DNA of 64,000 nt from Parcubacteria bacterium DG_74_1 (GCA_001303125.1 LJNE01000006.1:9169-73168); one strand, 5' to 3'; counted from the first letter of the stretch, positions 2,931-56,072 are shown. Notes: generated by a model not told the origin, from the letters alone. Program-made: numbers and translations.

Positions 2931-2968
2931 TTTAATAAAAACGCGGGGAGACAAATTTCGTCTCCCCG
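2931..2968 (-). terminator. Rho-independent terminator downstream of the purC-like gene
   Basis: Perfect 9-bp stem CGGGGAGAC (2944-2952) / GTCTCCCCG (2960-2968) with a 7-nt loop. On the minus strand it is followed by CGTTTTTATTAAAA. Confidence 0.7.
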
Positions 2969-3026
2969 GTCTTACAAAGGTGCGGGAATTCTTAACAACG
3001 GAGAGTCACTCCTCTCTCCTTGTTAG

Positions 3027-3950
3027 TTAGATATCGAGGTTAACTCCGGCATAGGCTTCAGCTAGAGCTTTGTACCGTCGGCTGATTTCCCAAATCGTTT
3101 CTTCCGGCAACTCAGGAATTGGTGGTTCTTCCTCGCCCTTATCCCTTGCAGCTTTAAGTCGATCGTAATAGCGCATCTCAATCAGCTTCTGGCGGATGAA
3201 TTCTTTGGAATAATGCTCAATGATCCCCTGACGAAGTTTCTCCGTAGGAACTGGCCGATCCTCATCCGGCGTACAGAAGACATCACCAATCATTTTCCTT
3301 CTTCCTGGTCCCATCAACGGCTCAACTTTGCCGTCAAGAAGAGTGTAGCCACATCGAGCCATTTCCAAAGAACAAGCCCCAATCAGACGATCAATCATGG
3401 CCCAATAATGATCTAAATCTTCCATGGTAATACCTGCGAGTCTACACACCTCTTCCTCGGTCAGGTCACGGTCAACGCTCTCAAGCTTCGTTGTGAGATG
3501 TTTGATAGGATATGGAAAAGGCGTTCCGACGACCGGGATAACACCGACTGATAGGCCGTAATGTTCTGGCTTCTTTTTCCCTGAATGAAAATCTCTGTCG
3601 ATGCTTCCAGCCACCCGAAGCCGATAAATAAATTCGGCCGGCACTAAGTAATTTTGGTCTTGAGCGGTTAATGCCCGGTCGGCGATAAGCTGAACCTCCT
3701 TGATCCGGATAGTAACTGGGTCGAGTTGCTCGACAAAGTGCGTAGGAACCCCAATTTCTTCAGCAATTCGGAAAGACTTGACAGCGCAAGCGCACATTGC
3801 GAGCGCTTTACCGGGGATGGGGTAACTGGCCCGACCTCTATCGAATACCGAAAAAAAATTTGTAAAGCGGAAGGCGATATCTGATTCGTCGACCCTGTAA
3901 ATATCCTTGGCGCTGCCCGCCCTGATGAACTGCAGCTTCACTGGTTCCAT
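3027..3950 (-). CDS. purC: SAICAR synthetase-like protein (long form)
   Basis: 307 aa. N-terminal GSAKDIYRV..FRFTNFFSVFDRGRA..IPGKA..VPTHFVE matches the PurC pattern (GKAKDIY / SAFD / GKG / THF). The gene is GC-rich relative to its flanks. Confidence 0.75.
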   Translation of the reverse strand: MEPVKLQFIRAGSAKDIYRVDESDIAFRFTNFFSVFDRGRASYPIPGKALAMCACAVKSFRIAEEIGVPTHFVEQLDPVTIRIKEVQLIADRALTAQDQNYLVPAEFIYRLRVAGSIDRDFHSGKKKPEHYGLSVGVIPVVGTPFPYPIKHLTTKLESVDRDLTEEEVCRLAGITMEDLDHYWAMIDRLIGACSLEMARCGYTLLDGKVEPLMGPGRRKMIGDVFCTPDEDRPVPTEKLRQGIIEHYSKEFIRQKLIEMRYYDRLKAARDKGEEEPPIPELPEETIWEISRRYKALAEAYAGVNLDI

Positions 3951-3951
3951 T

Positions 3952-4488
3952 TTATTGACCCTCCTTTCTCCTTTTGTCTTCTATCATGGCGAGTGCAGTT
4001 TCGAGCGTGAGCTCGAGTGGCTCTTTTGCCGCCGGCAACTGGATTGTAGGCAGATTACCTTGAACCGCGTCGCGGCAGGCTCGATAGAACCCTTGCGAAC
4101 CAACATAGTCATCGTAGATTACCTCTACCCCGGGCAATTGGGTGATGCTAAGTATCGCTGCCTGCGTGTGAGTGGAATTATTTGGGTCTTCTAATGCCAC
4201 CCCGAAAACATGAATTGATGTGTTTTGTTTCTCGTAGCGCAGGAAAGCCTCGATTACGCCGGGGAGGATCGCGGCCCAGCCGGCCGCCGCTATTATGACA
4301 TCGACAGCTTGAGTTTCCACAAACCGAGTAAGAGATTCGACAAGTTTCTTCCTGTTACGATGGGCACTTATTACTTTTACAAAGGGTACTTCCGCCCTCG
4401 AAGAGCTATCCAGATATTTGAGCCCTGTCTCGCATTGCGCGAGGTCGTTCACCGATCCCAAAATGATTCCGAGTTTTCTTTTACCCAT
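3952..4488 (-). CDS. purE: PurE-like (AIR carboxylase / N5-CAIR mutase fold) protein, atypical motifs
   Basis: 178 aa. LGIILGSVNDL (versus GSKSD), VISAHRNRKKL (SAHR retained) and IIAAAGWAAILPGVI (versus AGGAAHLPGM) show the family fold. One of the two conserved His residues is replaced by Ile. Confidence 0.6.
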   Translation of the reverse strand: MGKRKLGIILGSVNDLAQCETGLKYLDSSSRAEVPFVKVISAHRNRKKLVESLTRFVETQAVDVIIAAAGWAAILPGVIEAFLRYEKQNTSIHVFGVALEDPNNSTHTQAAILSITQLPGVEVIYDDYVGSQGFYRACRDAVQGNLPTIQLPAAKEPLELTLETALAMIEDKRRKEGQ

Positions 4489-4491
4489 TCA

Positions 4492-5265
4492 TTACTCTCC
4501 TTCTACCCTAAACGTTAGATACTTCTCGTCTATTCCGGCTAAAATCCGTTCGGCTGCCTCTGTTTTAGTCCGGGGTTTAGGGTCATCCCATCCTTGAAGT
4601 TCAGTGATAGGACCACCGATCACTATGAAACGAGCTCCTCGTTCTTTTGCTTGGTTTGGAGTCAAGGTAAAGATATGTTCTCCTTTATCCGGGTATGAAT
4701 CTGGTCTAATAGCAACCGCTACTGTCATGGGGATATCTCTCTTTTCTGGCTGACGAGACAGATGCTCTAGTTCTTCGGCTGCACAGTAAAGCCCGGCTGC
4801 TTTTGTTTCTCGGGTCATCGCGGTGAAATCATCTGCCTTGGCCTCTCTGTTAACCGCGCCGAAGATAAACCTGATATCAGCTAAGCTGAGAGAGCTCAGG
4901 CTCGATCCAACTAGAATCTTTGTTGGGTGATGAGCGGTTGCCACCGCTCTCCGGATAGCCGTAGGGCCAGCCGCAGCATTACAGACAATAAAGCGTACTG
5001 CTGTACGACAGAAGAGCTTAATGCTATCCTCGATAAATTTAGGAGTGCCGATAAGCTGGAGATCAATGAGTAAATTCACTGATCCTACGCTTTTTTCTAT
5101 TTCCTCGAGCAATCTTACGCCTTCAGCAAAAATCGGAGTGCTTAGTTTATATCCCCAGACCATCTTGCCCTCTTCAAGCTCTTTTATTGTCTCTATCACT
5201 TCTTCCTTGCCCAGCATATCTAACGCCACAATAATGGGATTTTGTATTGGTTTACGCATCTTCAC
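4492..5265 (-). CDS. Orotidine-5'-phosphate decarboxylase-fold protein with non-canonical active-site motifs
   Basis: 257 aa. It is colinear with PyrF: PIIVALD, GYKL (KVG), LLIDLQLIGTPKF (versus LDLKLHDIPNT), ILVGSSLSS (versus AVTxLTS) and FIVIGGPIT (versus IVVGRPIT). The catalytic DxKxxD motif reads DLQLIG here. Confidence 0.6.
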   Translation of the reverse strand: MKMRKPIQNPIIVALDMLGKEEVIETIKELEEGKMVWGYKLSTPIFAEGVRLLEEIEKSVGSVNLLIDLQLIGTPKFIEDSIKLFCRTAVRFIVCNAAAGPTAIRRAVATAHHPTKILVGSSLSSLSLADIRFIFGAVNREAKADDFTAMTRETKAAGLYCAAEELEHLSRQPEKRDIPMTVAVAIRPDSYPDKGEHIFTLTPNQAKERGARFIVIGGPITELQGWDDPKPRTKTEAAERILAGIDEKYLTFRVEGE

Positions 5266-6767
5266 ACCTCCTTTCTCTGGTTATATTTTGCTAAAAAAGC
5301 GTCTGCTCTCCTAGCAATTTTAAAGGCTTTTTCTTTGGCGTAACCGATGAACTTCTCGGGCTCTTGCAACAAGTCGATTAGCTCGCTGGGAATATTAGCT
5401 ACTACCGGTTTTAGTCTTGGTTTCTCGTCTGCCAACAGAGACAACTCCGTTATCAGGTGACGACCAGAAACCTGAGAGCGCGGCATAAGAGTATGATTTA
5501 CCAAGCTATGGGCATCACCTTGATAACCTGCCATCACTAAGGCAACATAGACCGCCTCAGACAAAACAAGGTGCCTCTGGATGGCGAAATTGTGCTTCAG
5601 GGCTTCCGTGTCAACAGAAATTCTAGGCACAATCCTATTCGCTGTCTCTAATTGATGTTGAGTGAGAACAATTATGCCCGGGAACTCCCGCATGACACAC
5701 ATTCCAGTGGCATCACGCTGGTGATCAGAGATTACTACATCCAGAACCTTATGAAACTCACTCTTAACAATAGTGTAAATGCCCTCGATGCCTTCCCAAC
5801 TTATAGGGTTTCTCTTATGGGGCATAGCCGAAGACCCGTCCTGACTACCCTCAAAGGGTTCTACCACCTCTGCTAGCTCCGTTCTTTGAAGATTTCTGCA
5901 ATCCCGGGAAATCTGCCCTAAAGCACCGGAAAGCAAAGTGAACTCAAGGAGAAAACGAGCTAACGGTTCGGGTGGTAAAATTTGGGTGGAAATTGGAGCA
6001 GGAGAAAGCTTAAGTTCGGCCAGAACTAATTCTTCAAAGCTTTTACCGAGCATCTCTTGGGACTTTTTCTCAAACCCCAAAGCTACTTGGCAGTTGTAAG
6101 CTCCTACTGGGCCGCTAAACTTTCCTACTAACTCTGCTTCTCTGTCTACTAAATGCTCAGCTATGTCAATAATTCTTCCCAAAATAGTTGCTAACCAGAA
6201 GCCGACCGTGATAGGTTCGGCGTGCTGACCATGAGTCCGGCCAATCTGGACGGTATCGGAAAATTGAGCCACCCTCTCTTTCAGTGACTTAATTAGCCCC
6301 AAGAGAGCTGGAAAACTAACTTCCCAGAAAGCTCTCTTATAAGCAACTATCCTGGCCGTGTCAATGATGTCATAGCTGGTAGCTGGAACATGAAGCCAGC
6401 GTGCTAAAACCTTTACTAACTGTCGCCTGGTGGCTATTAAAAAATAGCGGATAGCTGTTAATAGGGCCCTGATATCATGTTTGGTAATATTCTTTTCGAT
6501 GGCATCTTCAAGTGTGGTAGCAACCTTAGAACGAATCATTTGATACATCTCGTCGGTTAAAAGAGTCGCTACTCCCGGTGGAAGCATATCGAGCTTAGCT
6601 GAAACTTTCAGTAGAGCCCACTCAACCTCGAAATAGAACCTGGCAATGTTATCGTGGCCGAAAAATGGCTTGAGTGACGCGGGCTGATAACGAGGGTTTC
6701 CTGGCAACTCTAATCTCTCTGGCATTCTTTTTATTTTCTTGACAATTTCTTTTACTTGGCTAGACAT
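5262..6767 (-). CDS. purB: Adenylosuccinate lyase (fumarate-lyase superfamily)
   Basis: 501 aa. GRTHGQHAEPIT, ISTQI, the signature GSSAMPHKRNP, and HQRD are present. It overlaps the upstream OMPDC-fold gene by 4 nt. Confidence 0.85.
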   Translation of the reverse strand: MSSQVKEIVKKIKRMPERLELPGNPRYQPASLKPFFGHDNIARFYFEVEWALLKVSAKLDMLPPGVATLLTDEMYQMIRSKVATTLEDAIEKNITKHDIRALLTAIRYFLIATRRQLVKVLARWLHVPATSYDIIDTARIVAYKRAFWEVSFPALLGLIKSLKERVAQFSDTVQIGRTHGQHAEPITVGFWLATILGRIIDIAEHLVDREAELVGKFSGPVGAYNCQVALGFEKKSQEMLGKSFEELVLAELKLSPAPISTQILPPEPLARFLLEFTLLSGALGQISRDCRNLQRTELAEVVEPFEGSQDGSSAMPHKRNPISWEGIEGIYTIVKSEFHKVLDVVISDHQRDATGMCVMREFPGIIVLTQHQLETANRIVPRISVDTEALKHNFAIQRHLVLSEAVYVALVMAGYQGDAHSLVNHTLMPRSQVSGRHLITELSLLADEKPRLKPVVANIPSELIDLLQEPEKFIGYAKEKAFKIARRADAFLAKYNQRKEV

Positions 6768-6899
6768 TCTTTTTCACCTCTCTCTATTTATTATTTTGAA
6801 GGAACTAATCTTCTCACTAAAGAGCTATAAAAAAGAGGGCCGTTCCTCCTTTAACCCTCCTTTTTAAAAGGGTAGCAAATTTTGAAGAAATGTCAAAGC

Positions 6900-7835
6900 T
6901 TAGATATATTCGATGGTAGCCGGAGGCTTTGGGGTTATATCGTAACAGACGCGATTTACTCCCGGAATTTCAGTCGTTAATCTTTTGGTAATTTTTTCCA
7001 ATAATTTCCAAGGTAATTTAGTTGGCTGAGCTTTCCTTGCATCAACGCTTTCAACACATCTCAAAATAATAATACTACCAAATTCTCTTTTATTGTTTCT
7101 TAAACCAGTTGCCCTATCTTCCATTAGTACCGGGAAATACTGGAAAGCGCCAGAATTCTTTAGCTCTTTCTCTACAACCTTGGTTGCCTTTCTGACAACA
7201 GTGATCTTTTGACGATTGGCTTCGCCGATCACTCTGGCGGACAAAGCTGGTCCGGGAAAGGGCATTCTTTGGCAGATTGATCTGGGTAACCCTAAAAGTT
7301 TAGACACCTTCCTTACGCCGTCTTTACGAAGCTTAATCAAGGGCTCGATGACTTGGTAACCGAATTCTTTTTGAGGGTTAATGCCGATTTGAGCCAAAAC
7401 ATTATGCTGCCTTTTGATCCCAGCTACCGTCTCTTCAATATCAGTAAGAATAGTTCCTTGAAATAAAAACTTAATCTTTTTTTCCTTAATAATTTCTCTG
7501 AAAATATCTTTATAAAAAGCTGTGGCGACAGCCTTTCTTTTTTCTTCGGGATCAGTTTTTCCTTTTAAGGCTTTAAAAAAAATATTTTGAGCATTAACTA
7601 TTTCCACTTTTATTCCTAATTTCTGAAAATTCTTAACAACGCTTTCTGGTTCTCCTTCTCTCATTAAGCCATTATCAACAAAGACAACTTTGAGATTTCT
7701 TTCTAGGGCTTTATATCCCAAAAGAGTTACAGCTGAACTGTCTACGCCTCCCGATAGAACACTTAAAGCTTTCTCTTCACCAACAATCTCTCTAATTTCT
7801 TTAATTTTTTCTTTAATAAATTTTTTGTAATTCAT
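6900..7835 (-). CDS. guaA: GMP synthase, ATP-pyrophosphatase subunit B (split, archaeal-type)
   Basis: 311 aa. PP-loop SGGVDSS, FLFQGTILTDIEE, and the C-terminal dimerisation region ending PPATIEYI. There is no GATase domain in the ORF or next to it. Confidence 0.85.
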   Translation of the reverse strand: MNYKKFIKEKIKEIREIVGEEKALSVLSGGVDSSAVTLLGYKALERNLKVVFVDNGLMREGEPESVVKNFQKLGIKVEIVNAQNIFFKALKGKTDPEEKRKAVATAFYKDIFREIIKEKKIKFLFQGTILTDIEETVAGIKRQHNVLAQIGINPQKEFGYQVIEPLIKLRKDGVRKVSKLLGLPRSICQRMPFPGPALSARVIGEANRQKITVVRKATKVVEKELKNSGAFQYFPVLMEDRATGLRNNKREFGSIIILRCVESVDARKAQPTKLPWKLLEKITKRLTTEIPGVNRVCYDITPKPPATIEYI

Positions 7836-8596: not shown

Positions 8597-10195
8597 TTAG
8601 ATTTTTGGGAATAAAGGTTTACTTTTTTTAAATTTTGTTCCCGGCTTTAAACCGCCCCATTTTGTCGTTTCATCGAATGTTTTTTCTTTTTCTTTCTCAG
8701 GGTCCAATCCTAACTGCTCAAAAATTTTATTAGCTGTTTCAGGTAAAAATGGTAAAAGTATCCAAGCGATATGCCTTATTCCTTCTAAGACATTATATAA
8801 GACTGCGTCTATCTTTTCTTTTTTATTTCCTAATTTTTCGGCTGGTTTATATAATTTATGATGTTCTATGTAACCATCGCAAATAAAAACACTTGTGATA
8901 ACAGAGAAAAGGCTATTATTGAATGAAAAATTTTCTGTAGAAGATATTGACTTAATGAGTTCTTCTTTAATACTTTCTTGGAAATTTCCAACCCAACCAC
9001 TAGTAACAAATTTCCCTAAAGAAAGAGTTTCTGGAGTATTCTGAGGAATTTTAGGGACAATACCTAGCCAGTATTTCTCTGCCATAGTAAGCGTTCTGGC
9101 AAGCAGATTGCCTATACCATTTGCTAAATCCGCATTATATCTTTGTTTAAATTTCTCATATGTAAAGTCTCCATCTTCTGTCGGCGGAATCTCCCGCAAG
9201 AGAAAATAGCGAACAGCGTCCGTGCCGTATTTTTTAACCAATTCAAAAGGGTCAATGACGTTCCCTAGTGATTTCGACATTTTTTGGCCGCCAGAAGTTA
9301 TAAAACCGTGAACTAAAATGTTCTTTGGTCTTTCTAGTCCTGCCGCAATAAGTATTGCTGGCCAAATTAAGGCATGGAATTTAAGTATATCTTTACCAAT
9401 ACATTGAACATCGGGGGGCCAATACTTATTTTTAACTCCGGAAATGAAAGAAAGTCCGCCTAACCCCGAAATATAGTTCACTAAAGCATCAACCCAGACA
9501 TATGTTGTAGACTTTATACCGCCAACTTTAGGAATATAGGAAAGAACGGGAATTCCCCACTGCACTTTTTTTCTTGGCCTTGAAAAGCTTATATCTTCTA
9601 TCCCTTGTTCGATAAAACTTAGAATCTCATTCTTTCTCGCTCCGGGCACAACCTTTATTTTGTTAGCTTCTATTTCTTCTTTCACCTGTTTTGCATATCT
9701 TGAAAGTCTAAAGAAATAATTCTTCTCCTCAATTAACTCTGGCCTTGTCTGATGGACTGGGCATTCCCCATTGGCTAAATCCTTTTCCCTTATGAAGGCT
9801 TCACAACCAAAGCAATAAAATCCTTTATATTTTTTTATATAAATATCTCCTCCTTCTTCTAACTTACTCCAAATTTTTTGGACGGTTGGCCAGTGACGTT
9901 TTTTATCAGTCGTCCTGATAAAACCATCGTTTGATAAATTAAGTACTTCGACAAGTTTTTTAAATCTGCTTGAAAGTACATCGACAAATTCTTGCGGACT
10001 CTTTTTTGCATCCTCGGCCGCTTTAACAACTTTTTGCCCATGTTCATCAGTACCTGTCAAAAAGAAAACATCTTCACCTAAAATGCGATGATAACGAGCT
10101 AAAATATCGGCCTGAACCAATTCTAAAGCAAACCCGATGTGGGGAGGAGCATTAGTATAAGCTATGCTGGTTGTAATATAGAATTTCTTTTTCAT
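8597..10195 (-). CDS. metG: Methionyl-tRNA synthetase
   Basis: 532 aa. YITTSIAYTNAPPHIGF (HIGH-type), CxxC knuckle (CFGCE..ECPVH) and KMSKSLGN. Confidence 0.95.
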   Translation of the reverse strand: MKKKFYITTSIAYTNAPPHIGFALELVQADILARYHRILGEDVFFLTGTDEHGQKVVKAAEDAKKSPQEFVDVLSSRFKKLVEVLNLSNDGFIRTTDKKRHWPTVQKIWSKLEEGGDIYIKKYKGFYCFGCEAFIREKDLANGECPVHQTRPELIEEKNYFFRLSRYAKQVKEEIEANKIKVVPGARKNEILSFIEQGIEDISFSRPRKKVQWGIPVLSYIPKVGGIKSTTYVWVDALVNYISGLGGLSFISGVKNKYWPPDVQCIGKDILKFHALIWPAILIAAGLERPKNILVHGFITSGGQKMSKSLGNVIDPFELVKKYGTDAVRYFLLREIPPTEDGDFTYEKFKQRYNADLANGIGNLLARTLTMAEKYWLGIVPKIPQNTPETLSLGKFVTSGWVGNFQESIKEELIKSISSTENFSFNNSLFSVITSVFICDGYIEHHKLYKPAEKLGNKKEKIDAVLYNVLEGIRHIAWILLPFLPETANKIFEQLGLDPEKEKEKTFDETTKWGGLKPGTKFKKSKPLFPKI

Positions 10196-10866
10196 CTTTT
10201 ATCAACAATTACAACAAACTCTCCTTTTATTATATCCTTTTCTATCTGCTTTATCACTTCTTTGATCTTTCCGCGGTAAATCGTTTCAAATTTTTTTGTT
10301 AATTCCCGACAAACCACAATTTTCAATTCTTCATTCATAATTCCCAATTCATTCAAGCTTTTAATTATACGATGGGGCGACTCATAAAAAACTACTAGAT
10401 ATTTTGCATTTATTATTTCTTCAAAAAATTTCTTTCGCTTTTTTTTAGCTGGTGGGAAACCCAAAAATAAAAATTTATCCATGGGAAAACCAGAAATACC
10501 AGCTATCGCACTAATTGCCGATGGACCAGGGATAGGTACAATTTTTACTGAACTACTTAATGACTCAATTACTTTTTTCACTAATTTTCCGCCTGGGTCA
10601 GAGATTCCCGGAGTTCCGGCGTCAGAAACCAAAGCTAAGTTTTTACCTTCTTTCAAAAAATTAATAACTCGTTCAATCTTTTGGAGCTTTGAGTGCTGAT
10701 GATAACTTAAGGTCGGAGTTTTTATCTGGTAATGGTCTAATAATTTCTTGGTTACCCTAGTATCTTCGCACAAAATTAAATCAACCTCCGCTAAGGCACG
10801 GAGGGCTCTTTTTGAAATATCCTCTAAATTCCCAATAGGAGTAGCAACAATATAAAGGGTGCCCAT
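10192..10866 (-). CDS. rsmI: 16S rRNA (cytidine1402-2'-O)-methyltransferase
   Basis: 224 aa. GTLYIVATPIGNLEDIS..LILCEDTR..VSDAGTPGISDPG is the tetrapyrrole-methylase-fold RsmI pattern. Confidence 0.9.
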   Translation of the reverse strand: MGTLYIVATPIGNLEDISKRALRALAEVDLILCEDTRVTKKLLDHYQIKTPTLSYHQHSKLQKIERVINFLKEGKNLALVSDAGTPGISDPGGKLVKKVIESLSSSVKIVPIPGPSAISAIAGISGFPMDKFLFLGFPPAKKKRKKFFEEIINAKYLVVFYESPHRIIKSLNELGIMNEELKIVVCRELTKKFETIYRGKIKEVIKQIEKDIIKGEFVVIVDKR

Positions 10867-10872
10867 CTTAAC

Positions 10873-11961
10873 CTACCAAATTATGCTTTTTTTATGGCCA
10901 GATGACGACGGCTGATGAGAAGGCGGAATTTCGCCTTCTTTTCTTTTTTTCAAGAAATCTCGAGTAAACTCAAAAACAATACCGGCCAAAGGAATAGCTA
11001 AAATTGCTCCTAAAATTCCCCATAATTTACCGCCAATCATCAAAGAAATTAAAACTAAGGCCGGAGGCAAATCGGTGAATCTCTTGGTCAAAATTGGTGT
11101 TAAAATATTACCTTCTATCTGTTGAATAATAATAAAAACAAGCAAAATCATGACGGCTATCCCGGGAGAATTTAGGGCAGCGATTAAGGCAATAACTATT
11201 CCAGCTACTATTGGCCCGATAATCGGGATAATATCGGCAACACCAGCGAACAAAGCAAGGATAAACGGATAATTTATATCGAAGAGCCAGAGAGCAATAT
11301 AAGACATAAGGCCAACAAAAAGACAGGCTAAAATCCGCGCCCCAAACCAGCCTGAAACCTTTAATTGACAAGATTTCCAAATATTTAAAGCTTCTTCTTC
11401 CTGCCTCTTGGAGAAGAGAATCCTAATTGCCCTTTCTATTCCTTTTTCTTCTAAAGAGAGAAAAATTGCCAAGGTAAAAATAGTAATTGTCGTAAAAATT
11501 CCGCCAAAAATGGAAACTGTGGCAGAAATAATGCTTTCCGAAGCCTGGAGTAACCATTCTCGAAAGCCCTGAGTTAAAACACTAAAACTATCAGAGACTT
11601 CAAACCCCAATTCTTCTAAAAAAGGGGAGAGTGCTGCAAAATATTGTGGGATGTTTTCAACAAAATCTTGAATTTGATCAATAAAAACCGGAGCAACCAA
11701 ATAAATTAAAATTCCAAAAAACCCGAAGATAAAAATAAAAATGAAAATGGTGGCTACTACCCGAGGGATCCTTCTTTTCTGCAAAAAATCAATTGCCGGA
11801 GTCAATAAGACCGAGATGATCAAAGCAAAAATAAACCAAATTAAAATATCTTTGATCAAATAAACGACGTAAAAGACAAATGAAGCAATGCCAATTTTAA
11901 AAAGCGTCCCCCAAGAAATATCTAGAATTTTTTCATTGTTCATAAAAAACTTAAGTCTCAA
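10873..11961 (-). CDS. AI-2E (PerM/YhhT) family transporter
   Basis: 362 aa with about 8 predicted TM helices. The C-terminal LWGILGAILAIPLAGIV motif is typical of the family. Confidence 0.7.
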   Translation of the reverse strand: MRLKFFMNNEKILDISWGTLFKIGIASFVFYVVYLIKDILIWFIFALIISVLLTPAIDFLQKRRIPRVVATIFIFIFIFGFFGILIYLVAPVFIDQIQDFVENIPQYFAALSPFLEELGFEVSDSFSVLTQGFREWLLQASESIISATVSIFGGIFTTITIFTLAIFLSLEEKGIERAIRILFSKRQEEEALNIWKSCQLKVSGWFGARILACLFVGLMSYIALWLFDINYPFILALFAGVADIIPIIGPIVAGIVIALIAALNSPGIAVMILLVFIIIQQIEGNILTPILTKRFTDLPPALVLISLMIGGKLWGILGAILAIPLAGIVFEFTRDFLKKRKEGEIPPSHQPSSSGHKKSIIW

Positions 11962-11969
11962 TTGTCAAT

Positions 11970-13235
11970 TTATAATTTCAATAATTGTTGGAGTCTCGCT
12001 TTGTCTTTAAATGGACCAATTAAAGCTAAATTTAGTTTTTCCGGTCGGAAAACGTCTTTGGCTATTTCTAGAATATCATTTTGGCTAACTTTATCAATTT
12101 TCTTATAAATTTCTTCGGGGGTTAAAATTCTATTTTCTAAAAGTTCTTGGCCGGCATAAAAGGCAGCCTGAGCATCTGAGGATTCTAGTTCTAGGGCGGT
12201 TTTTCCCTTTATATATTCTTTAGCTTTTTTAAGCTCTTTAGCGGGAATTCTTTTCCGAGAAATTTTCTTATATTCTCTCAAAATAATAGGTATCGCCTTT
12301 TCTACATTTTTATTATCTATTCCAGCTTGAGTAACTAAGTATCCAGTATCAGGATCCAGGTGGGTGTTAGTTTTTATATAATAAGCTATACCTAGTTTCT
12401 CTCTTATTTCTACAAACAACCTCGAACTCATCATTCCTCCCAAGATTACTCCCAAAACCTCCTGCACAAATCTTTTATGATGCAAAAGGTTATAAGCTCT
12501 AACCCCTAAAGTTAAATGGGTTTGGTCAGTTTTCTTAGGGTAAAGAAGAACCTGAGGTTTATTTTGTTTTTCAATTACTGGAAGTTTAGTTTTGGAACTA
12601 GCGGTGCGAATTTTTGAAAAATATTTTTTAACTTCTTTAATTATACCTACTTCTGAAAATTTTCCTGCCAGACAAATAACGGTATTAGTGGCTACATACT
12701 GCGATTTCATATAATTAAAAATTTGCTGTCGAGTAATACTGGCCACATTCTCTTTTGTTCCTATTATTTCCCAGCCAGCCGGCTGGTCTCCATAAAGTAG
12801 TTTTTTCCAAAGCTCTCCAACATAAAGCATGGGCATATCTAAATACATATTTATTTCTTCAATTATCACTCCTCTTTCTTTTTCTATTTCTTTGGGTGGT
12901 AACAGACTGCCCAAATAAATATCAGAAATCCAGTCCAAAGCTAAGTCTATGTGAGAAGATCTTACTTTAGCGAAATAGCCAGTGTATTCTTCGGAAGTAA
13001 AGGCATTATAAATCGCGCCAACCCTATCTAAAGGTTCAATCAACGCCAAGGGAGTTGGTCTTTTTTTAGTGCCTTTAAAATACATATGCTCTAGAAAATG
13101 GGAAATGCCGTTATTTTCCTTGGTTTCATATTTTGAGCCAGTCCCTACTAATATCAAGGCAGTCACCGCTCGGGCACTTTCCTGAGGAATAGTAATTAAT
13201 CTAAGGCCGTTTTGAAAAGTTGTTTTTTTAAACAT
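11970..13235 (-). CDS. M16 (pitrilysin/insulinase) family zinc peptidase
   Basis: 421 aa with the inverted zinc motif HFLEH (GISHFLEHMYFKGT) and a downstream E. Confidence 0.85.
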   Translation of the reverse strand: MFKKTTFQNGLRLITIPQESARAVTALILVGTGSKYETKENNGISHFLEHMYFKGTKKRPTPLALIEPLDRVGAIYNAFTSEEYTGYFAKVRSSHIDLALDWISDIYLGSLLPPKEIEKERGVIIEEINMYLDMPMLYVGELWKKLLYGDQPAGWEIIGTKENVASITRQQIFNYMKSQYVATNTVICLAGKFSEVGIIKEVKKYFSKIRTASSKTKLPVIEKQNKPQVLLYPKKTDQTHLTLGVRAYNLLHHKRFVQEVLGVILGGMMSSRLFVEIREKLGIAYYIKTNTHLDPDTGYLVTQAGIDNKNVEKAIPIILREYKKISRKRIPAKELKKAKEYIKGKTALELESSDAQAAFYAGQELLENRILTPEEIYKKIDKVSQNDILEIAKDVFRPEKLNLALIGPFKDKARLQQLLKL

Positions 13236-14211
13236 TTTTATTGTTATTCAACAAGAGTTTTTTCAATAATTTTACGCCGAAACTTAAAAAGACAAATAAC
13301 CCTAGAAATGCAAAGAATAACTCCGCCCCTCGGACAATCATCGTAAAGGCAGTTGCCGTTCCAGCACTCAATCCCAGTTTTCCGAAAACAAAGATTTGGA
13401 TTATTTCAAGACTTCCGAGGGCCGCGGGAATCGGAAAAAATTGAGTTAATGTTGAAAAACTGAAAATAGAAAAGGCGGAAAAAAAGCCTAAAGACTTTCC
13501 CAAAAAAACAATTGCGAAAAAGGTTCGTAAAAGCGAAACAATGTCTTTTAAAAAGGCTACAATTAAGCCTTTCCAAAAAAACATTTTTCTCACGTTGAAA
13601 AAATTAAAAATTTCTTCTTCAACATTCAAAATAATGTTTCTTTCGCTCCTTTTTATAAAAAACTTGACTAAGCTTTCTTTCTTAAAGCTTTTAAAATAAA
13701 AAAGTGATATAGGTATTAGCGCTAGTAGAAAGCCCCCTCCCAGAATTATGGCTAAGTTACGAGGAGGCATTCCGATCTTCAAAAGAAAATAGACAATACC
13801 CAAAAAAGCCATTATTACGTGGGCTGTAATTTCCAAAATCCTATCAATAAAAGCCGAGGAAATGGCTATATTGCCAGGAAAATTTGTCTTTTCTTTTAAG
13901 ATGTATCCTCTGACAATTTCGCTACCAAAGGGAACCGTGGGCATCAAATAATTGACCGAGTGTGCGACTAAAAAAGGTTTGATAAGGGCGGCAATTGAAA
14001 TTTGACACCCCTGACTTTCAATAATCTGCTGCCATCTCAATATCGCCACCAACATCATCAAAAAAGTTAATCCTAAAATAGCTAATCCGTTAACTCCCGT
14101 AAACGACTGAAAAGCTAATATAAAATTATTCCATCCTATAAATCTTACAACGAAGATAAAAAGAACAATCCCAAGAGATAAAGAAGCCAAAAGAAATAAA
14201 ATTCTTTTCAT
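13228..14211 (-). CDS. Polytopic membrane protein, flippase-like (LPG-synthase TM / UPF0104-like)
   Basis: 327 aa with about 8 TM helices. The family call is from the general pattern only. Confidence 0.45.
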   Translation of the reverse strand: MKRILFLLASLSLGIVLFIFVVRFIGWNNFILAFQSFTGVNGLAILGLTFLMMLVAILRWQQIIESQGCQISIAALIKPFLVAHSVNYLMPTVPFGSEIVRGYILKEKTNFPGNIAISSAFIDRILEITAHVIMAFLGIVYFLLKIGMPPRNLAIILGGGFLLALIPISLFYFKSFKKESLVKFFIKRSERNIILNVEEEIFNFFNVRKMFFWKGLIVAFLKDIVSLLRTFFAIVFLGKSLGFFSAFSIFSFSTLTQFFPIPAALGSLEIIQIFVFGKLGLSAGTATAFTMIVRGAELFFAFLGLFVFLSFGVKLLKKLLLNNNKNV

Positions 14212-14212
14212 T

Positions 14213-14872
14213 TTAATTATTGTTTTTTCTTCCTAAAACTCCGAAGAGAGCTCCAAATACGGTTTCCCCTTCGTTAATAATTTCCAAACCGCTCTCTTTA
14301 AAAATAAGACGCAGTTCATCTTTGGTAAATGGCTGCTCCTTTATGCCTAAAATTTTATTTATTCTTTCAATCGGTTTGAAGGCTTTTGAAAAAACCGGGA
14401 CCCAGATCATAACTAACCCGCCGTCCCGAATAAAATCAGTGTGTCTTTTCACTGTCAAAAAACGTTCCTCTCCTTTAAAATGCTCTATCAAGCCCGTACT
14501 GTGAACAAGGTCATATTCTTTCCCCAATGAAATCTCAAAAATATCTCTATTGATTTTATTCACCGGACAGGGAAAATAATTTACTTTAACCCTTGCTAAA
14601 GCTTTTTCACTGAAATCAACCAGAGTAACCTCTTTTACGGAGTGAGTTTTTGCTAAATAAAGACTGTTATTCCCCGTCCCACTACCAAGCTCAATAATAT
14701 CTTTATCTCTAAGGGATATATTTTTTAAAAGCTTATCAATCGCATTAAAATAAATCCTGTGGCGGACAAAGTTCTCAAAATGCCAAGCAGCAGGAAGTTG
14801 GGGATAAAAATTCGTTATTTTATTTGTCCAAAGACGATTCCAATGATAACTTGAGTTTTCTAATTTTTCCAT
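14213..14872 (-). CDS. Class I SAM-dependent methyltransferase
   Basis: 219 aa with motif I IIELGSGTGNN and an acidic loop VDFS. Confidence 0.75.
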   Translation of the reverse strand: MEKLENSSYHWNRLWTNKITNFYPQLPAAWHFENFVRHRIYFNAIDKLLKNISLRDKDIIELGSGTGNNSLYLAKTHSVKEVTLVDFSEKALARVKVNYFPCPVNKINRDIFEISLGKEYDLVHSTGLIEHFKGEERFLTVKRHTDFIRDGGLVMIWVPVFSKAFKPIERINKILGIKEQPFTKDELRLIFKESGLEIINEGETVFGALFGVLGRKNNN

Positions 14873-15100
14873 GAATCAATAAAAAATTTTTTCTTCTTAT
14901 TTCTTTTACTCCCTTTCGCCAAGCACCTGGAAATTTCAAAAGGGATAATCGAAAAATTCTTCTCTTCTTACCGGACCGCCAATTAAGGCGTGAAGACAAT
15001 ATCTTATTTCAAAAAACTAAACTTTTTTTAAAAGCTATTTCACCATTTTTCAACATAGCAATTATCTATCATGAAAGGCGGCATTGTTAATTATAATATA

Positions 15101-16426
15101 TTATCTTATTTTTTTATTTAAAAATTCGCTTAATTTATTAATCTTTATTCTCTCTTGCTGCATTGTGTCGCGGTCGCGGACAGTGACATCCTCTTGTTTT
15201 AAAGTTTCGAAATCAATAGTAACAGCAAACAAGGTGCCAATTTCATCCTGGCGGCGGTAACGTCTTCCGATTGAACCCACTTCATCATACCGGACCATGA
15301 AATGAGCTCTTAAGATTTCAAAAACTTCTCTAGCTTTCTTAAGTAATTCTGGTTTGTTTTTGACCAAAGGCAAAACTGCCACCTTAATCGGCGCTATTTT
15401 TTTATTTAACTTTAAAACTACTTCAATCTCCTTTGCGGCTTTAGTAGTTTTGGTCCTGCCGCCTTTAATTTCCGTATAGGCATCACATAGAATTGCCAAA
15501 AGAGCTCTTTCTAGCCCCATCGTTGGTTCGATAACATAAGGATAATATTTCTTTTTTATCTCTTCATCAAAATATGCCAAATCTTCGCCAGAAAACTGAC
15601 TGTGCCTTTTTAAATCGTAATCTGTGCGATTAGCTACACCGGCTAATTCTGCCCAGCCAAAGGGAAATTTATATTCAATATCAACCGTCCTTTTGGAATA
15701 ATGAGATAAAGATTTTTTAGAATGCTCGTGACGCCTGAGGTTTTCTTTCTTCAGCCCCAGGCCTAGAAAGAATCTCTCCCAGTTATCTAACCAGACTTCA
15801 AATTGCTTCTCGTCCTTCCCCGGTTCAACAAAATATTCAATTTCGGCAATATCAAACTCTCGGGAACGAAAAGTAAAGTTGCCTGTAGTAATTTCATTTC
15901 TAAAACAACGGCCCATTTGAGCAATACCAAAAGGTATTTTCAAACGCTGAGATTCTTGAACTAGCTTAAAATCAGTAAACATAGATTGAGCAGTTTCTGG
16001 CCTGAGATAAGTTACATGCGCCTTGTCTTCCACTGGTCCCAAAAAAGTTTTGAAAAGTAAATTAAATTGTCTGGTAGGAGTAAGTTCTTCATTTCCACAC
16101 TGAGGGCACTTCTTTTTTGCTAACTCGTCTCCTCTGAAACGGGAGTGACATTTCTTACACTCAATTAAGGGATCAGTAAAACTTTCAAGGTGGCCTGAAG
16201 CTTTCCAAGTCTTGGGATGCATAAGAACTGTACCGTCTATCAAGACTACGTCCTCTCGGCCTTGAACAAATTTTTTAAGCCAGAGGTTCCTGATATTATT
16301 TTTTAAAAGAGCGCCTAGGGGCCCATAATCCCAGAGAGACTCTACGCCACCGTAAATTTCCGAAGATTGGTAAATAAAACCTCGGCGCTTGCATAAAGAG
16401 ACAATTTTTTCCATTAAATCAGCCAT
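15101..16426 (-). CDS. glyQS: Glycyl-tRNA synthetase (dimeric class II type)
   Basis: 441 aa. RRGFIYQSSEIYGG, YLRPETAQ, GRCFRNE and the C-terminal anticodon-binding domain. Confidence 0.95.
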   Translation of the reverse strand: MADLMEKIVSLCKRRGFIYQSSEIYGGVESLWDYGPLGALLKNNIRNLWLKKFVQGREDVVLIDGTVLMHPKTWKASGHLESFTDPLIECKKCHSRFRGDELAKKKCPQCGNEELTPTRQFNLLFKTFLGPVEDKAHVTYLRPETAQSMFTDFKLVQESQRLKIPFGIAQMGRCFRNEITTGNFTFRSREFDIAEIEYFVEPGKDEKQFEVWLDNWERFFLGLGLKKENLRRHEHSKKSLSHYSKRTVDIEYKFPFGWAELAGVANRTDYDLKRHSQFSGEDLAYFDEEIKKKYYPYVIEPTMGLERALLAILCDAYTEIKGGRTKTTKAAKEIEVVLKLNKKIAPIKVAVLPLVKNKPELLKKAREVFEILRAHFMVRYDEVGSIGRRYRRQDEIGTLFAVTIDFETLKQEDVTVRDRDTMQQERIKINKLSEFLNKKIR

Positions 16427-16427
16427 A

Positions 16428-18080
16428 TCATTGGACTTTGCCCATTTCTTCGGTTATGGTCTCATCATCTGGTAGAGTAGTATCAATGGCCGGAGAAGTG
16501 CCTTCTAGAATTCGGTCGGTCCAACTATCTTCGCCAGTTATCGTAGCCGCATTAATAATTTCTGGAGTTTGACCTCGTTGAAATTCATTAGGCGTAAAAG
16601 AAACTTGAAAGGCAATATTTTTAACCGGCGTAAAAACGCCACTTCCTCTCTCTAGGTCGCCGACCGACCAGATAATTTCTCTTGATTGCGAATCAAAGGA
16701 AAATTTTGTGGTTTCATCTTCGGGAAAGATTTTTCCGGTTAATTCAACACTCGGAGGCAAAAGAGCCTTCACCCTGATATCTTTCACCAGAGAATAGTAA
16801 TTTTTTACTTGCCAAATAATAGTATAACTTGTTGCCCCTCCTACTCGTGGCGGAATCGGCCCTCCATTCCCGAAAACCTCATCCCGGAAAAATCCTTTCT
16901 GAACTATCTCTATCTTTGAACTAATCTTAGTGATAAATTCTTCTTTCACATCATTGACAGAAATCTTGTTTATTAGAATAGGCTTTTCGGCCAAACCTAA
17001 GTCATCTTTTACCTTTATCCAAAAATCAACTTTTCTTTCCTCCATCGGTAGTAAATATTGAAGTTGAGAAATTTTATGCCAATCAAAAACTACCGAGTTC
17101 GAACCAGGTTCAGTTTGTCCAAAATCGGACCTAATAGTTCCTGAATCAAAGGCTTCTCCTTCTAGTTCACTAACTATAAATAGATTATTCAAAACATCTT
17201 CATCAATATTCTTAAAATAAATTTCGTAATGCAGCCAATCACCAGGCCGAGCCACATATTGGGGATTCCTGTTAATTTCTTGCCTAATATAAATTAATGG
17301 TTTTATAATCTCTAATCCTTTTTCTACTTCTTTTAACAAAATAAACTCTCCTTCTTTAAAAACGCCCAATTTTGCTACAAAGATTCTCGCCTCGCTGATT
17401 TGGCCAGAAACTTTACCGGTAATTTCAATTCTTCCCCCTTCGTTTTTATTCAAAAGCGAGACAAGCCATTCATTTTTCTCTAAAGAACTAGGGGTAGATT
17501 CAAGAAATTCAAATCCGGAAGGATATTCAGTCTGTACTCTTAAATCAGTCAATGGATAATCAACGTTAGAGAAATAATTTATTCTAAAGTTAAAACTTTT
17601 TACTGATTCAACCTTTGATGGCAGATCAAGTTCAAAGGTGATAGGAGCCGATTTAATGACGTTGGTGAAAGTAGTTTCCGATTCATATCGAGGTTTTAAA
17701 TTTTTAGGCCGATAACTTAAAGTGGCCTTGGCTGTTATATTTTCTCCTTCCTGGCCTAATAATCTGGCTTTGAAAGAAATAGTTCCTTCCATCTTGGGAT
17801 AAATATCATCTAAAATTATCTCCTGCCGCAAGGGTTTATCGTCGGGAACAAGAGCCTGTTTTGGATATTCAAAAATTAAGCGCGGCTCTTCAAGAGGAAC
17901 CGCTCCGTTATTCTTATATTTAACGGTATATTCAACTTCCTCTGCAAGACCTACTTCTCTTTTGCTCAAAATCTCCAAATTTAAATTTCCTTTAGAAAAA
18001 ACCTGTCTCTGCCATAAATAACCGATGAGGCCTATCAGAGAAGCTAAAATTATAAATACTAAAATCAGCCTATTACGCAT
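16428..18080 (-). CDS. N-terminally anchored surface protein with about four DUF11/CARDB-like beta-sandwich repeats
   Basis: 550 aa with one N-terminal TM helix. A recurring pattern (x-Y-x-I/V-x-Y/F-x-N followed by hydrophobic-N/D-L/I) appears around aa 45, 160, 290 and 420. Confidence 0.5.
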   Translation of the reverse strand: MRNRLILVFIILASLIGLIGYLWQRQVFSKGNLNLEILSKREVGLAEEVEYTVKYKNNGAVPLEEPRLIFEYPKQALVPDDKPLRQEIILDDIYPKMEGTISFKARLLGQEGENITAKATLSYRPKNLKPRYESETTFTNVIKSAPITFELDLPSKVESVKSFNFRINYFSNVDYPLTDLRVQTEYPSGFEFLESTPSSLEKNEWLVSLLNKNEGGRIEITGKVSGQISEARIFVAKLGVFKEGEFILLKEVEKGLEIIKPLIYIRQEINRNPQYVARPGDWLHYEIYFKNIDEDVLNNLFIVSELEGEAFDSGTIRSDFGQTEPGSNSVVFDWHKISQLQYLLPMEERKVDFWIKVKDDLGLAEKPILINKISVNDVKEEFITKISSKIEIVQKGFFRDEVFGNGGPIPPRVGGATSYTIIWQVKNYYSLVKDIRVKALLPPSVELTGKIFPEDETTKFSFDSQSREIIWSVGDLERGSGVFTPVKNIAFQVSFTPNEFQRGQTPEIINAATITGEDSWTDRILEGTSPAIDTTLPDDETITEEMGKVQ

Positions 18081-18703
18081 ACTTCTTTATTATACCACCG
18101 AGAGATATTTTTTAATAGTCTTAAATGGTCGGGTGTAATTTTCAATCTCGATAAGACGTGCCAATCTTTTTTTATAATAATTTTTAAAATTTTAGCAAGA
18201 TCGGGATCAATTTTTTTCCCGCAGATGTAATCAGCGCGCAGTTCCGGCTGATAGCCAAGGAGAGAAATAAGATTCCAGAAAAAATAATAGTACAAGAGCT
18301 CTAGTCTTACTCCGGTAATTTCTATCTTATTTAGTTTTTTAAAGATTTCCTCTAATAAATACCAAATTTTTTCGTCGGGCTCTTGATCTTTCACCAAATC
18401 ATCTAAAATCCCGGAAACTTTATAAGCAATTCTTAGTCTTTTTAAATCAGCTTTAATATTCGCGAATCTCTCAACTAAAATGGTGTCAGTCAAAGTTTTA
18501 TAATTTTTTCCCTGAATAAATTCAATTTCCGATAGATAAAAAATCTCAGCTCCTGACCTTAACTTTGAAGAAATTTTTCTAATTGCCTTTCCCAAAATTT
18601 CTAATTTTCCGAAATCCTTCGTGTAAATAGTAAATAATAAGTCCGCATCGCCACGATCCTCTTTTTTAAAGATAAAAGCCAAGGTCCGGTAATGAACGAA
18701 CAT
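18065..18703 (-). CDS. recO: DNA repair protein RecO
   Basis: 212 aa. The N-terminal OB fold (ALIFKKEDRGDADLLFTIYTKDFGKLEILGKAIRK) and helical C-terminal half match the RecO layout. Confidence 0.75.
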   Translation of the reverse strand: MFVHYRTLAFIFKKEDRGDADLLFTIYTKDFGKLEILGKAIRKISSKLRSGAEIFYLSEIEFIQGKNYKTLTDTILVERFANIKADLKRLRIAYKVSGILDDLVKDQEPDEKIWYLLEEIFKKLNKIEITGVRLELLYYYFFWNLISLLGYQPELRADYICGKKIDPDLAKILKIIIKKDWHVLSRLKITPDHLRLLKNISRWYNKEVCVIG

Positions 18704-18710
18704 TTATAAT

Positions 18711-19094
18711 TTATTTTTTAAAAAACCCTCTGTATATTTTTTTTACCTTCTCTCTATCGTTTAAGCTAAGGTTAAGGTCTCCAAATGCTCCGTATTTACC
18801 TTTGTCTAACTCGTGCTCTATATTTTCAGGTTCTCTTTTGGCTTTTTCAAAAAGCGTACCAACCAATTTCGGATCTGATATATGATGACCCAGTCTCAGT
18901 CTTTCGTCTCTCAATAAACCAGTAACCTTGAAAGCTTCATTACTTTCTAACCACCTGTCAAATTCTTTTGTAGAAAAGTGCGATCTTCCTTTATATGGCC
19001 CTGTATCTTTGGGCGGTTCTTTTCGGAGGGGCTTATCAAATTTTTCTTTAGCCTGTCCCTGTCTCAGCTCTTGTTTTTTTTCGATTAAAGCCAT
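18711..19094 (-). CDS. Hypothetical protein
   Basis: 127 aa, charged/basic, no motif recognised. It is packed tightly between recO and ileS. Confidence 0.5.
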   Translation of the reverse strand: MALIEKKQELRQGQAKEKFDKPLRKEPPKDTGPYKGRSHFSTKEFDRWLESNEAFKVTGLLRDERLRLGHHISDPKLVGTLFEKAKREPENIEHELDKGKYGAFGDLNLSLNDREKVKKIYRGFFKK

Positions 19095-19097
19095 ATT

Positions 19098-22000: not shown

Positions 22001-22619
22001 AAACTGGAAACTTGATATAAATTGCTGGCTCTCTTATTTTTTCATAACCCAAAGCTACCTCATGACTTGATAGGCTTGTGCCACAACGAGCGCAGTAAGG
22101 GATCACCTTATAGTCTTTATATAAAAGTCCTTTTTGCCAAATTTGTTTAATAATCCACCAAACCGTTTCGATATAGTTCGGCATATAGGTAATATAAGGA
22201 TTTTCTGTGTCTAGCCAGAAGGCGATTCTTTCGGTTAAATTCTCCCAGTCTTTCTTATAATTCCAGACGGATTTCCGACATTTTTTGTTAAACTTAGCAA
22301 TTCCGTATTTTTCTATTTCTTTTTTTGATTTCAGCCCTAATTTTTTCTCAATTTCTAATTCTACCGGTAAACCGTGAGTATCCCAACCGGCCTTTCTCAA
22401 GACTTTAAAACCATGCATGGTTTTATATCGACAGATAATATCTTTAAAAACTCTAGTTAAAACATGATGGAGGCCGGGTTTGGCATTGGCTGTTGGCGGC
22501 CCTTCATAAAATACGAAATTCGGCGTCCTCTTGCGCTTCTGAATAGATTTTTCAAAAATTCTATTTCGCTGCCAAAATGTCAATATTTTCTTCTCAGTCT
22601 TGGGAAAATTTATTTCCAT
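19098..22619 (-). CDS. ileS: Isoleucyl-tRNA synthetase (type 2) carrying an internal histidine-phosphatase domain
   Basis: 1173 aa with HHVLTR-type HIGH, KMSKSKGN and a CP1 editing domain. About 200 extra residues (aa about 481-680) lie between the CKKCG zinc knuckle and DFHRPYID. They carry RHG, SSDLLRTKQTAE and IIGHQ motifs. Confidence 0.95.
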   Translation of the reverse strand: MEINFPKTEKKILTFWQRNRIFEKSIQKRKRTPNFVFYEGPPTANAKPGLHHVLTRVFKDIICRYKTMHGFKVLRKAGWDTHGLPVELEIEKKLGLKSKKEIEKYGIAKFNKKCRKSVWNYKKDWENLTERIAFWLDTENPYITYMPNYIETVWWIIKQIWQKGLLYKDYKVIPYCARCGTSLSSHEVALGYEKIREPAIYIKFPVLNPEFKNASLLVWTTTPWTLPGNVAVAVNPEITYVKVKIDKEYLILAKERIKACRAKGEVVKEFRGKDLVDLRYQPLYPFSEEVIKGAYRVILADFVSLEEGTGLVHIAPAFGEEDMITGKKNNLPTLLTVDEEGRFKLGVKKWARMFIKEADPLIIEDLKNRNILFKRELYEHDYPFCWRCHSPLFYYAKESWFIRMTQIKKDLIKNNQKTNWLPAHLKKGRFGEWLKEVKDWALTRERYWGTPLPIWQCKKCGCFEIIGSKKDLVSQKFSKNKYFLLRHGTSLRNLKDVAACWPEKIPCPLTKEGKEQVKVATKKLKKEKINLIFSSDLLRTKQTAEIAGKELGIRPKFSKKLREVNIGIFNGRPVKEIGRFWDKEKELSPLEYYSKRFRVNPPKGENFTDIEKRMYEFLKQVDRKHQGKNILIIGHQRPLTLLEKANYSYDLKRFTRIIIKKKEIKTGELRRFEFKDLPYNEKMELDFHRPYIDEVKFCCQKCNAPMERVPEVIDCWFDSGAMPFAQYHYPFENKALINKKIQFPAEYISEAIDQTRGWFYTLLAISSLLGKGPSYKNVLSVGHVLDEKGEKMSKSKGNVTDPWYLVEKYGADATRWYFYTINQPDDSKLFSEKDVDQALKRFILTLWNCFTFYRTYATDIKTSKFNLKSNSDIEMGQYKAISLLDRWVISRLNRVIQEATQKLDKYDITGAARIIEDFIINDFSLWYIRRSRKRFDEAADTLEYVLLTLSKLTAPFIPFLSEEIYQKIKNLPKQDKIAKGQTKLKIQDSVHLENWPKASKKLIGRALEKKMEKAREMVTKSLAERARAKIKVRQPLNELRIKNYELRNKAELLSLIKEEVNVKEIVFDPKIKGEVELDTRITPGLREEGFIREIIRQIQEMRKIARFKPEDKVSINYFGSGGLNKILEKNKNLILKEGKIKNLARKEKEKEVFAAEKEIMVDQQKLWLAIKKN

Positions 22620-22627
22620 GATTTTGT

Positions 22628-38736: not shown

Positions 38737-38741
38737 AATTA

Positions 38742-40722: not shown

Positions 40723-40723
40723 G

Positions 40724-52276: not shown

Positions 52277-52292
52277 ATTGATCTTTTATTTT

Positions 52293-56013: not shown

Positions 56014-56072
56014 ATATGATAATATAGCTTTACGCTTTTCGTTTTTTATTCTTTTTATTTAAGAAAAGGGTT

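Follow-up and report, generated by a model that had tools for sequence, protein, structure and literature searches.

Late-purine genes around a resident decarboxylase-fold gene in a Parcubacteria genome

Comparison with described purine genes

In Escherichia coli and Bacillus subtilis, the products of purE(K), purC and purB act in the order AIR→CAIR→SAICAR→AICAR, where AIR is 5-aminoimidazole ribonucleotide, CAIR its 4-carboxylate, SAICAR the succinocarboxamide and AICAR the carboxamide ribonucleotide. The same three protein families, with the same implied order of reactions, are encoded in a 64,000-nucleotide stretch of DNA from Parcubacteria bacterium DG_74_1 (GCA_001303125.1, LJNE01000006.1:9169-73168), hereafter the window. 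There they form a block of four minus-strand genes, the remaining member of which has the fold of orotidine 5'-monophosphate decarboxylase (OMPDC). The signature motifs are kept in the PurB-like and PurC-like proteins, as is SAHR in the PurE-like protein. Unlike the pur genes of E. coli and B. subtilis, the trio has no purK, early pur genes or purH nearby, and all three of its products score below the equivalog level. It is also set in a foreign operon with the OMPDC-fold gene in the middle, in a host lineage whose members mostly do not make nucleotides de novo. Animal PAICS, a PurC–PurE fusion, offers a parallel only: in the window the PurC-like and PurE-like proteins come from separate genes, and the fusion that we detected belongs to another genome.

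Patescibacteria (the candidate phyla radiation, CPR) are usually described as wholly reliant on scavenged nucleotides. In a preprint, de novo nucleotide synthesis is reported to be missing from 93% of the Patescibacteriota genomes considered, and the genes for it to be phylogenetically scattered. Our literature search returned nothing specific on late-only purine modules in CPR.

The locus is made mostly of known parts. Its distinguishing feature is that genes of a mobile late-purine module have probably been gathered around an OMPDC-fold gene that is resident and non-canonical. We think it probable, with room for doubt, that late-purine genes were imported stepwise around this resident gene, that they carry out ordinary chemistry and that they belong to a horizontally exchanged module.

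Gene content and composition of the block

The block, its boundaries and its upstream neighbour are as follows.

3027-3950, minus strand: PurC-like gene, 307 amino acids (aa); PF01259
3952-4488, minus strand: PurE-like gene (AIRC family), 178 aa; PF00731
4492-5265, minus strand: OMPDC-fold gene, 257 aa from a GTG start (255 aa from an ATG start in databases); PF00215
5262-6767, minus strand: PurB-like gene, 501 aa; PF00206
2944-2968, minus strand: intrinsic terminator, CGGGGAGAC-N7-GTCTCCCCG and then a T-run, closing the operon
6768-6899, minus strand: leader of 132 nt with a hairpin, weak -35/-10 elements at 6817-6790 and a ribosome-binding site (promoter scan)
6900-7835, minus strand: GuaA, the ATP-pyrophosphatase part of GMP synthase (TIGR00884, 323 bits); native upstream neighbour

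Neighbouring genes of the block overlap or abut at their stop and start codons. A first, sequence-only reading of this DNA had described a GC-rich, four-gene purine-like block, and much of that description stands. Pfam bears out its family calls (SAICAR_synt, AIRC, OMPdecase and Lyase_1). The gene coordinates, the strand, the strong terminator and the 132-nt spacer are all as first noted, and its hand counts of G+C (36/60, 29/60 and 14/60) are exact. The block is indeed GC-richer than its surroundings, at 0.472 against 0.374±0.014 (maximum 0.407) in 1070 windows of equal size from the rest of the 64 kb (z=6.8). GC per block gene ranges from 0.455 to 0.503, the PurE-like gene being the richest at 0.503, against 0.374±0.026 in 55 other open reading frames (ORFs). 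Third-position GC of the block genes is 0.415-0.525, against 0.341±0.035 elsewhere in the window. At four-fold degenerate sites the PurE-like (0.56) and PurC-like (0.49) genes lie clearly above the native range of 0.32-0.43. The GC-richest gene outside the cassette is RtcB (0.436).

The stem of the terminator is 11 bp long, 7 of its pairs being G-C, and is followed by a T-tail; the region folds with a z-score of -6.9. The terminator is kept in the close relative L008, while L006 and L009 have different hairpins at that place. No Rfam match at E≤1 was found in the leader, whose fold is unexceptional (z=-1.1); a purine, ZTP or PRPP riboswitch at this position was accordingly rejected.

The same block also lies on an independent 136.6-kb contig, which rules out an assembly chimera. 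Purifying selection acts on each of the four genes: the ratio of nonsynonymous to synonymous substitution rates (dN/dS) is 0.14-0.15 for the PurC-like gene, 0.12-0.16 for the PurE-like gene, 0.16 for the OMPDC-like gene and 0.10 for the PurB-like gene. This overall range of 0.10-0.16 led us to reject a reading of the four genes as decaying or pseudogenes. Signatures of mobility were not evident: flanking repeats were short and at chance level, none being significant, and Pfam scans of the window detected no integrase or transposase domains. The sole tRNA in the window is at 43498.

Four states of the guaA–leuS site

The (tatD–)guaA–leuS site that houses the block occurs in four states among related Parcubacteria.

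State 1: OMPDC-like gene alone (L006, L007, L090)
State 2: canonical PurB, OMPDC-like gene, canonical PurC (L009)
State 3: long PurB, OMPDC-like gene, archaeal-type PurC, no PurE (L008)
State 4: as state 3, with the PurE-like gene added (the window and L099; also L101 and L102, short contigs spanning OMPDC-like–PurE-like–PurC only)

In L009, PurB scores 406.8 against a cut-off of 326 and PurC 316 against 251, and these proteins are 27% identical or unalignable to those of the window. The guaA-side leader of L006 aligns with the leader of the window up to the ATG; it precedes the OMPDC-like gene in L006 and the PurB-like gene in the window. The leuS promoter aligns across all four states. Between the window and L006, identity is 56% for the OMPDC-like protein, 55% for LeuRS, 56% for MetRS, 55% for TatD and 74% for GuaA. 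Considering that it occupies the same site behind the same leader in L006, and that its divergence equals that of the flanks, the OMPDC-like gene is resident and vertically inherited.

The proposal of a single, horizontally acquired four-gene cassette therefore does not hold for the OMPDC-fold gene (56% identity, against 55-56% in the flanks), which stands between guaA and leuS behind the same leader in L006. It survives in part for the others. Horizontal acquisition of the PurC-like and PurE-like genes is supported by their GC at synonymous sites, their absence from the L006 site and the patchy distribution of the PurE-like gene, while that of the PurB-like gene appears plausible but weaker. 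The PurE-like gene is absent from the close relative L008 and present in L101 and L102, and its presence varies among relatives that are 82-93% identical. Only three close relatives of its product were found (78-83% identity), the next being 44% identical and from another Parcubacteria genome (L012). This presence and absence among close relatives, together with its composition, points to the PurE-like gene as the latest arrival.

A probable course of assembly follows from these comparisons. The ancestral state would have been a native single-gene unit comprising the guaA-side leader, the OMPDC-fold gene and the terminator, followed by leuS. The PurB-like gene would have been inserted between the leader and the start codon of the OMPDC-like gene, and the PurC-like and later the PurE-like gene between its stop codon and the terminator, the OMPDC-like operon thus serving as a putative landing pad for pur genes. 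We infer gain rather than loss for these genes, and the block would be co-transcribed as one operon. As to function, the PurE-like protein would convert AIR or N5-CAIR (N5-carboxyaminoimidazole ribonucleotide) to CAIR, the PurC-like protein would use ATP to ligate aspartate, giving SAICAR, and the PurB-like protein would release fumarate to give AICAR. The last would also act as an adenylosuccinate lyase available for the synthesis of adenosine monophosphate (AMP).

Several observations weigh against stepwise import with ordinary chemistry. At four-fold degenerate sites the PurB-like (0.40) and OMPDC-like (0.41) genes are inside the native range, so that part of their GC excess comes from codon positions 1 and 2; for the PurB-like gene, acquisition is thereby less certain and loss in L006 possible. 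The split order PurB–X–PurC is found twice with non-orthologous PurB and PurC, which fits a passive landing pad poorly. The PurC-like protein falls below curated cut-offs (NF010564, 181 against 459; TIGR00081, 96.8 against 189.9), as do the PurB-like protein (TIGR00928, 245.5 against 326.2) and the PurE-like protein (TIGR01162, 45.5 against 149.6). The 70s loop of the latter reads AAGWAAILPG, against AGGAAHLPG in class I PurE (Gly to Trp and His to Ile). No purK, purH, purA or early pur gene was detected in the 64-kb window and ~10 kb beyond leuS (~74 kb in all, with 53950-57321 and 59821-62659 inspected by eye only), so that no gene in this stretch explains where AIR comes from or what becomes of AICAR.

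Part of this would suit a complete de novo purine pathway, vertically inherited and with its remaining genes elsewhere in the genome, the GC excess then stemming from amino-acid composition or expression. The ordinary four-fold sites of the PurB-like and OMPDC-like genes agree with such an origin, and in ~7% of Patescibacteriota genomes de novo synthesis is indeed present (preprint). We nevertheless regard it as improbable. The syntenic site in L006, L007 and L090 is devoid of the three pur genes, PurB and PurC are xenologous in L009, and the PurE-like gene comes and goes among close relatives. The PurC-like and PurE-like genes are clearly raised at synonymous sites, and within the 64 kb no other gene reaches the GC of the block, translation genes and RtcB included. 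Finally, PurB and PurC differ in their closest relatives (L019 and L010, respectively).

Late-purine modules in other Patescibacteria

Stepwise import gains from the recurrence of similar modules. PurB–PurE–PurC modules were detected in loci of Falkowbacteria, Parcubacteria and Moranbacteria, PurE–PurC in L020, PurH–PurC in L016, and PurB–PurC with a PurC–PurE fusion in L019; the genomic partners of the PurC-like protein in CPR loci are PurB, PurE, PurH and PurA. Three loci contain features of particular relevance.

L017, 4073-10933, plus strand: compact PurA–PurH–PurB–PurE–PurC cluster
L019, 11024-12409, plus strand: PAICS-like SAICAR_synt+AIRC fusion of 461 aa, directly downstream of PurB–PurC
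L012, 7564-9453, plus strand: two tandem genes resembling orotate phosphoribosyltransferase (OPRT; pyrE_Therm, 79 bits against 150), immediately upstream of PurE-like–PurC in a Parcubacteria metagenome-assembled genome (MAG)

In L017, PurH is encoded by two overlapping ORFs, MGS/IMPCH (242 aa) and AICARFT (482 aa), which is either a purJ/purV-like arrangement or a frameshift. The MAG that contains L019 is labelled Gammaproteobacteria, yet its PurB and PurC are of the CPR type. The OPRT-like pair of L012 might be a base-salvage entry into the module.

Unrelated housekeeping genes stand on both sides of the CPR modules, which in most loci are GC-richer than these flanks. The closest relatives among the compared loci differ for each gene of the window: L019 for PurB (45% identity), L010 for PurC and L012 for PurE. 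Since late-purine modules recur patchily and are often GC-richer than their flanks, ordinary late-purine chemistry is the likeliest function of the trio.

The sequence-only reading had also noted that the AIR→AICAR segment alone is encoded locally, which agrees with our searches of the window and the ~10 kb past leuS. Its suggestion that the trio plugs into a salvage route is plausible. Inosine monophosphate (IMP) is a metabolite used by the organism, as both guaA and the following gene are present.

26457-27941, minus strand: GuaB (IMP dehydrogenase), PF00478, 300 bits; context only

GuaA is 311 aa long and comprises the ATP-pyrophosphatase/dimerisation part only, with neither a glutamine amidotransferase (GATase) domain nor an adjacent gene for a GATase subunit. 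A recurring, exchanged and selected AIR→AICAR(→IMP→AMP) module would imply that some lineages acquire an early purine intermediate or its riboside from a host or from their surroundings, or make it in an unrecognised way.

The three purine-type proteins

The PurC-like protein matches PF01259 with 76.5 bits (gathering score 20). Its top-scoring model is the archaeal-type long PurC (NF010564, PRK13959.1-1 subfamily), with residues 7-302 aligned to positions 2-291 of the 294 in the profile. It shares with that family a length of ~300 aa and the motifs D[VT]F[GC]T[PQ]DED and IGVPTHFVE, by which loci were fetched for comparison. It is set apart by its score of less than half the cut-off, and the CPR clade is 30-37% identical to the archaeal, Nitrospinota and Myxococcota members. 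Relatives of the window protein form ~60 clusters (43-87% identity), every named one from Patescibacteria, and this CPR clade is nested within the long archaeal-type PurC family. The motif positions GxxK, RxxAGS, DxKxE, D…TPD…R and K…R are invariant in 31 CPR-clade sequences and align to PurC of M. abscessus; by reference to E. coli PurC structures, we take these residues to bind ATP, Mg and CAIR. Outside CPR, in archaea and in other bacteria, genes of this PurC type adjoin PurP, PurB, PurQ and PurM/L, which argues for a genuine PurC lineage.

The PurB-like protein matches Lyase_1 (PF00206) with 109 bits (gathering score 27). In an alignment to T. maritima adenylosuccinate lyase it retains the GSSAMPHKRNP signature and the RTHGQHAEP histidine region. 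A total of 232 representatives were retrieved at E<1e-30, the best at 54% identity. The ten closest relatives are almost all metagenome proteins, one of them labelled Planctomycetota and located on a 4-kb contig, and they single out no donor lineage.

The PurE-like protein matches PF00731 with 57 bits (gathering score 30) and contains SAHRN. Like class I PurE (N5-CAIR mutase), it is ~175 aa long and keeps GSxxD, SAHR, the LPG of the 70s loop and QxPG, but it differs in a seven-residue insertion after that loop (LRYEKQN) and in its C-terminus. No ATP-grasp PurK partner was detected in the window or ~10 kb beyond leuS. The lack of purK is compatible with non-enzymatic formation of N5-CAIR at high CO2. 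A LarB (nickel-pincer) identity was rejected, there being no match to LarB (NF033503) at E≤0.01; at 178 aa the protein has no LarB-type N-terminal extension, and the neighbouring PP-loop gene is GuaA, not LarE (47 against 150).

As first noted, each member of the block is atypical; in our searches all four score far below the NCBIfam equivalog cut-offs. Such scores would be expected if the trio carboxylated and then amidated a ribonucleotide other than AIR or CAIR, such as a nucleotide of pyridine or pyrazole, and if the OMPDC-like protein acted on the same substrate. The altered 70s loop of the PurE-like protein, a DEDR stretch in the PurC-like protein where M. abscessus PurC reads DSSR, and an OMPDC fold of the non-decarboxylase kind point in the same direction. 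Such chemistry, also entertained in the sequence-only reading, is nonetheless disfavoured, and we consider it very improbable. In L009 the divergent pair is replaced by canonical PurB and PurC, both above cut-off, on either side of the orthologous OMPDC-like gene. In the modules of L016 and L017, PurH and PurA accompany this PurC type, and beyond CPR the DEDR type stands beside PurP, PurQ and PurM/L. The failure of the PurE-like protein to match LarB and the lack of accessory tailoring genes count against it too.

The OMPDC-fold protein

The fourth protein matches PF00215 with 49 bits and scores 76 against 193 for the PyrF equivalog. Its family comprises ~20 clusters among 5.8 billion proteins, every named member being from CPR. 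A metagenome scan with the family profile retrieved only nine loci, mostly in contexts already known. The AlphaFold2 model has a pLDDT of 89.5, and its top Foldseek matches are PyrF of E. coli, Klebsiella and Campylobacter (TM-score 0.75-0.77). The (β/α)8 fold, the Asp of strand 1, the Lys of strand 2, the first Asp of the strand-3 motif, and the IRP and TP motifs are kept as in PyrF. Unlike in PyrF, the catalytic Lys is replaced by Gln, the Asp contributed by the dimer partner by Gly, the Gln of loop 7 by His and the gripper Arg by Gly or Ser, and Cys161, His197 and Asn96 are new invariant residues. The motif thus reads DLQLIG instead of DxKxxD, and the gripper region IGGPI instead of GRP. 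Members of the CPR family share the altered catalytic motif; DAKLHD and GRP are intact in P0022, a genuine PyrF. With these replacements the protein cannot be a conventional OMP decarboxylase. The family-invariant residues D16, K40, D68, N96, S121, C161, R187, H197 and G217 lie at the C-terminal strand ends of the barrel, that is, at its catalytic face, indicating that the active site is maintained. Nothing specific on a Lys-less OMPDC paralogue was found in the literature. The protein probably binds a ribonucleotide and acts as an enzyme with a remodelled active site, its function being separate from the pur genes or only loosely linked to them.

Two variants of the gene were observed among the relatives. 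In L101 (2-337, plus strand) the protein reads VIGRPIN, with the gripper Arg present; the window and most members have Gly, Ser or another residue there. In L009 (2674-3408, plus strand) the gene is split into ORFs of 74 and 165 aa, through a frameshift or an assembly error.

A closer tie to the purine genes has to be weighed. The OMPDC-like protein could be an integral fourth enzyme, either an analogue of AIR carboxylase independent of PurE and PurK or an entry enzyme that makes AIR or CAIR from a salvaged precursor, in which case the gene order would be under selection. Two non-orthologous PurB/PurC pairs enclose it at the same site, and in L008 and L009 it takes the middle position usual for PurE, with no PurE on the contig. 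Its stop and start codons overlap or abut those of its neighbours, its invariant residues and dN/dS indicate constraint, and the OPRT-like pair of L012 is a second case of pyrimidine-type paralogues beside PurE-like–PurC. Most members of the family, however, are solitary beside genes for aminoacyl-tRNA synthetases (aaRS), def or FAD-oxidoreductases, with no pur gene within 10-20 kb, and no OMPDC-like gene occurs within 10 kb of the PurB–PurE–PurC modules at other CPR loci. The linkage is known from four related contigs only, for which one ancestral arrangement followed by replacement could suffice, and our literature search gave no chemical precedent for carboxylation of AIR by an OMPDC fold. 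An integral role is therefore unlikely in our view. The broader proposal that the CPR family as a whole is a new purine enzyme, providing a route from AIR to CAIR without PurE and PurK or a step from a scavenged host metabolite to AIR or CAIR, we rate as quite unlikely. Were it true, the OMPDC-like protein and the mobile PurB–(PurE)–PurC(–PurH–PurA) module would constitute an unrecognised half-pathway, by which ultra-small bacteria make IMP and AMP from an imported intermediate. Membership in the pathway would also add a new function to one of the best-studied enzyme folds. Annotation pipelines in which PF00215 ('PyrF') is taken as evidence of de novo pyrimidine synthesis would count the CPR family wrongly.

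In Nealsonbacteria (L001-L003 and L095), the OMPDC-like gene is located between ArgRS and IleRS, in a block (RsmI, AI-2E, M16, class II aaRS, RecO, IleRS and ArgRS) otherwise syntenic with 10192-24169 of the window. The window has no gene between ArgRS and IleRS, which abut; its OMPDC-like gene lies at guaA/leuS.

A second PF00215 gene in the window (46767-47552, minus strand) was considered as a true PyrF and rejected, being a homologue of 3-hexulose-6-phosphate synthase. Its product of 261 aa has an intact ADLKCMD and an insertion of ~50 aa near the N-terminus, and its best relatives of solved structure are 3-hexulose-6-phosphate synthases. By homology, this gene suggests a pentose-phosphate route of the ribulose monophosphate (RuMP) type.

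Other features of the window

IleRS of the window (19098-22619, minus strand) is unusually long, at 1173 aa. The Nealsonbacteria orthologue (L001, 10791-14162) has a His_Phos_1 (phosphoglycerate-mutase-like) domain inserted within the synthetase. Genes for RNA repair comprise RtcA at 35731-36756 (plus strand) and RtcB followed by archease at 50834-52700 (minus strand). At 37771-40815 (minus strand), a BcrAD/BadFG-type ATPase gene is followed by two HGD-D/DUF2229 (CoA-enzyme-activase-like) genes, which are unexpected in a minimal fermentative CPR genome. Four tandem paralogues of ~200 aa each are encoded at 61386-63881 (minus strand), downstream of a histidine kinase and two response regulators; their only Pfam signal is a sub-threshold match to V4R.

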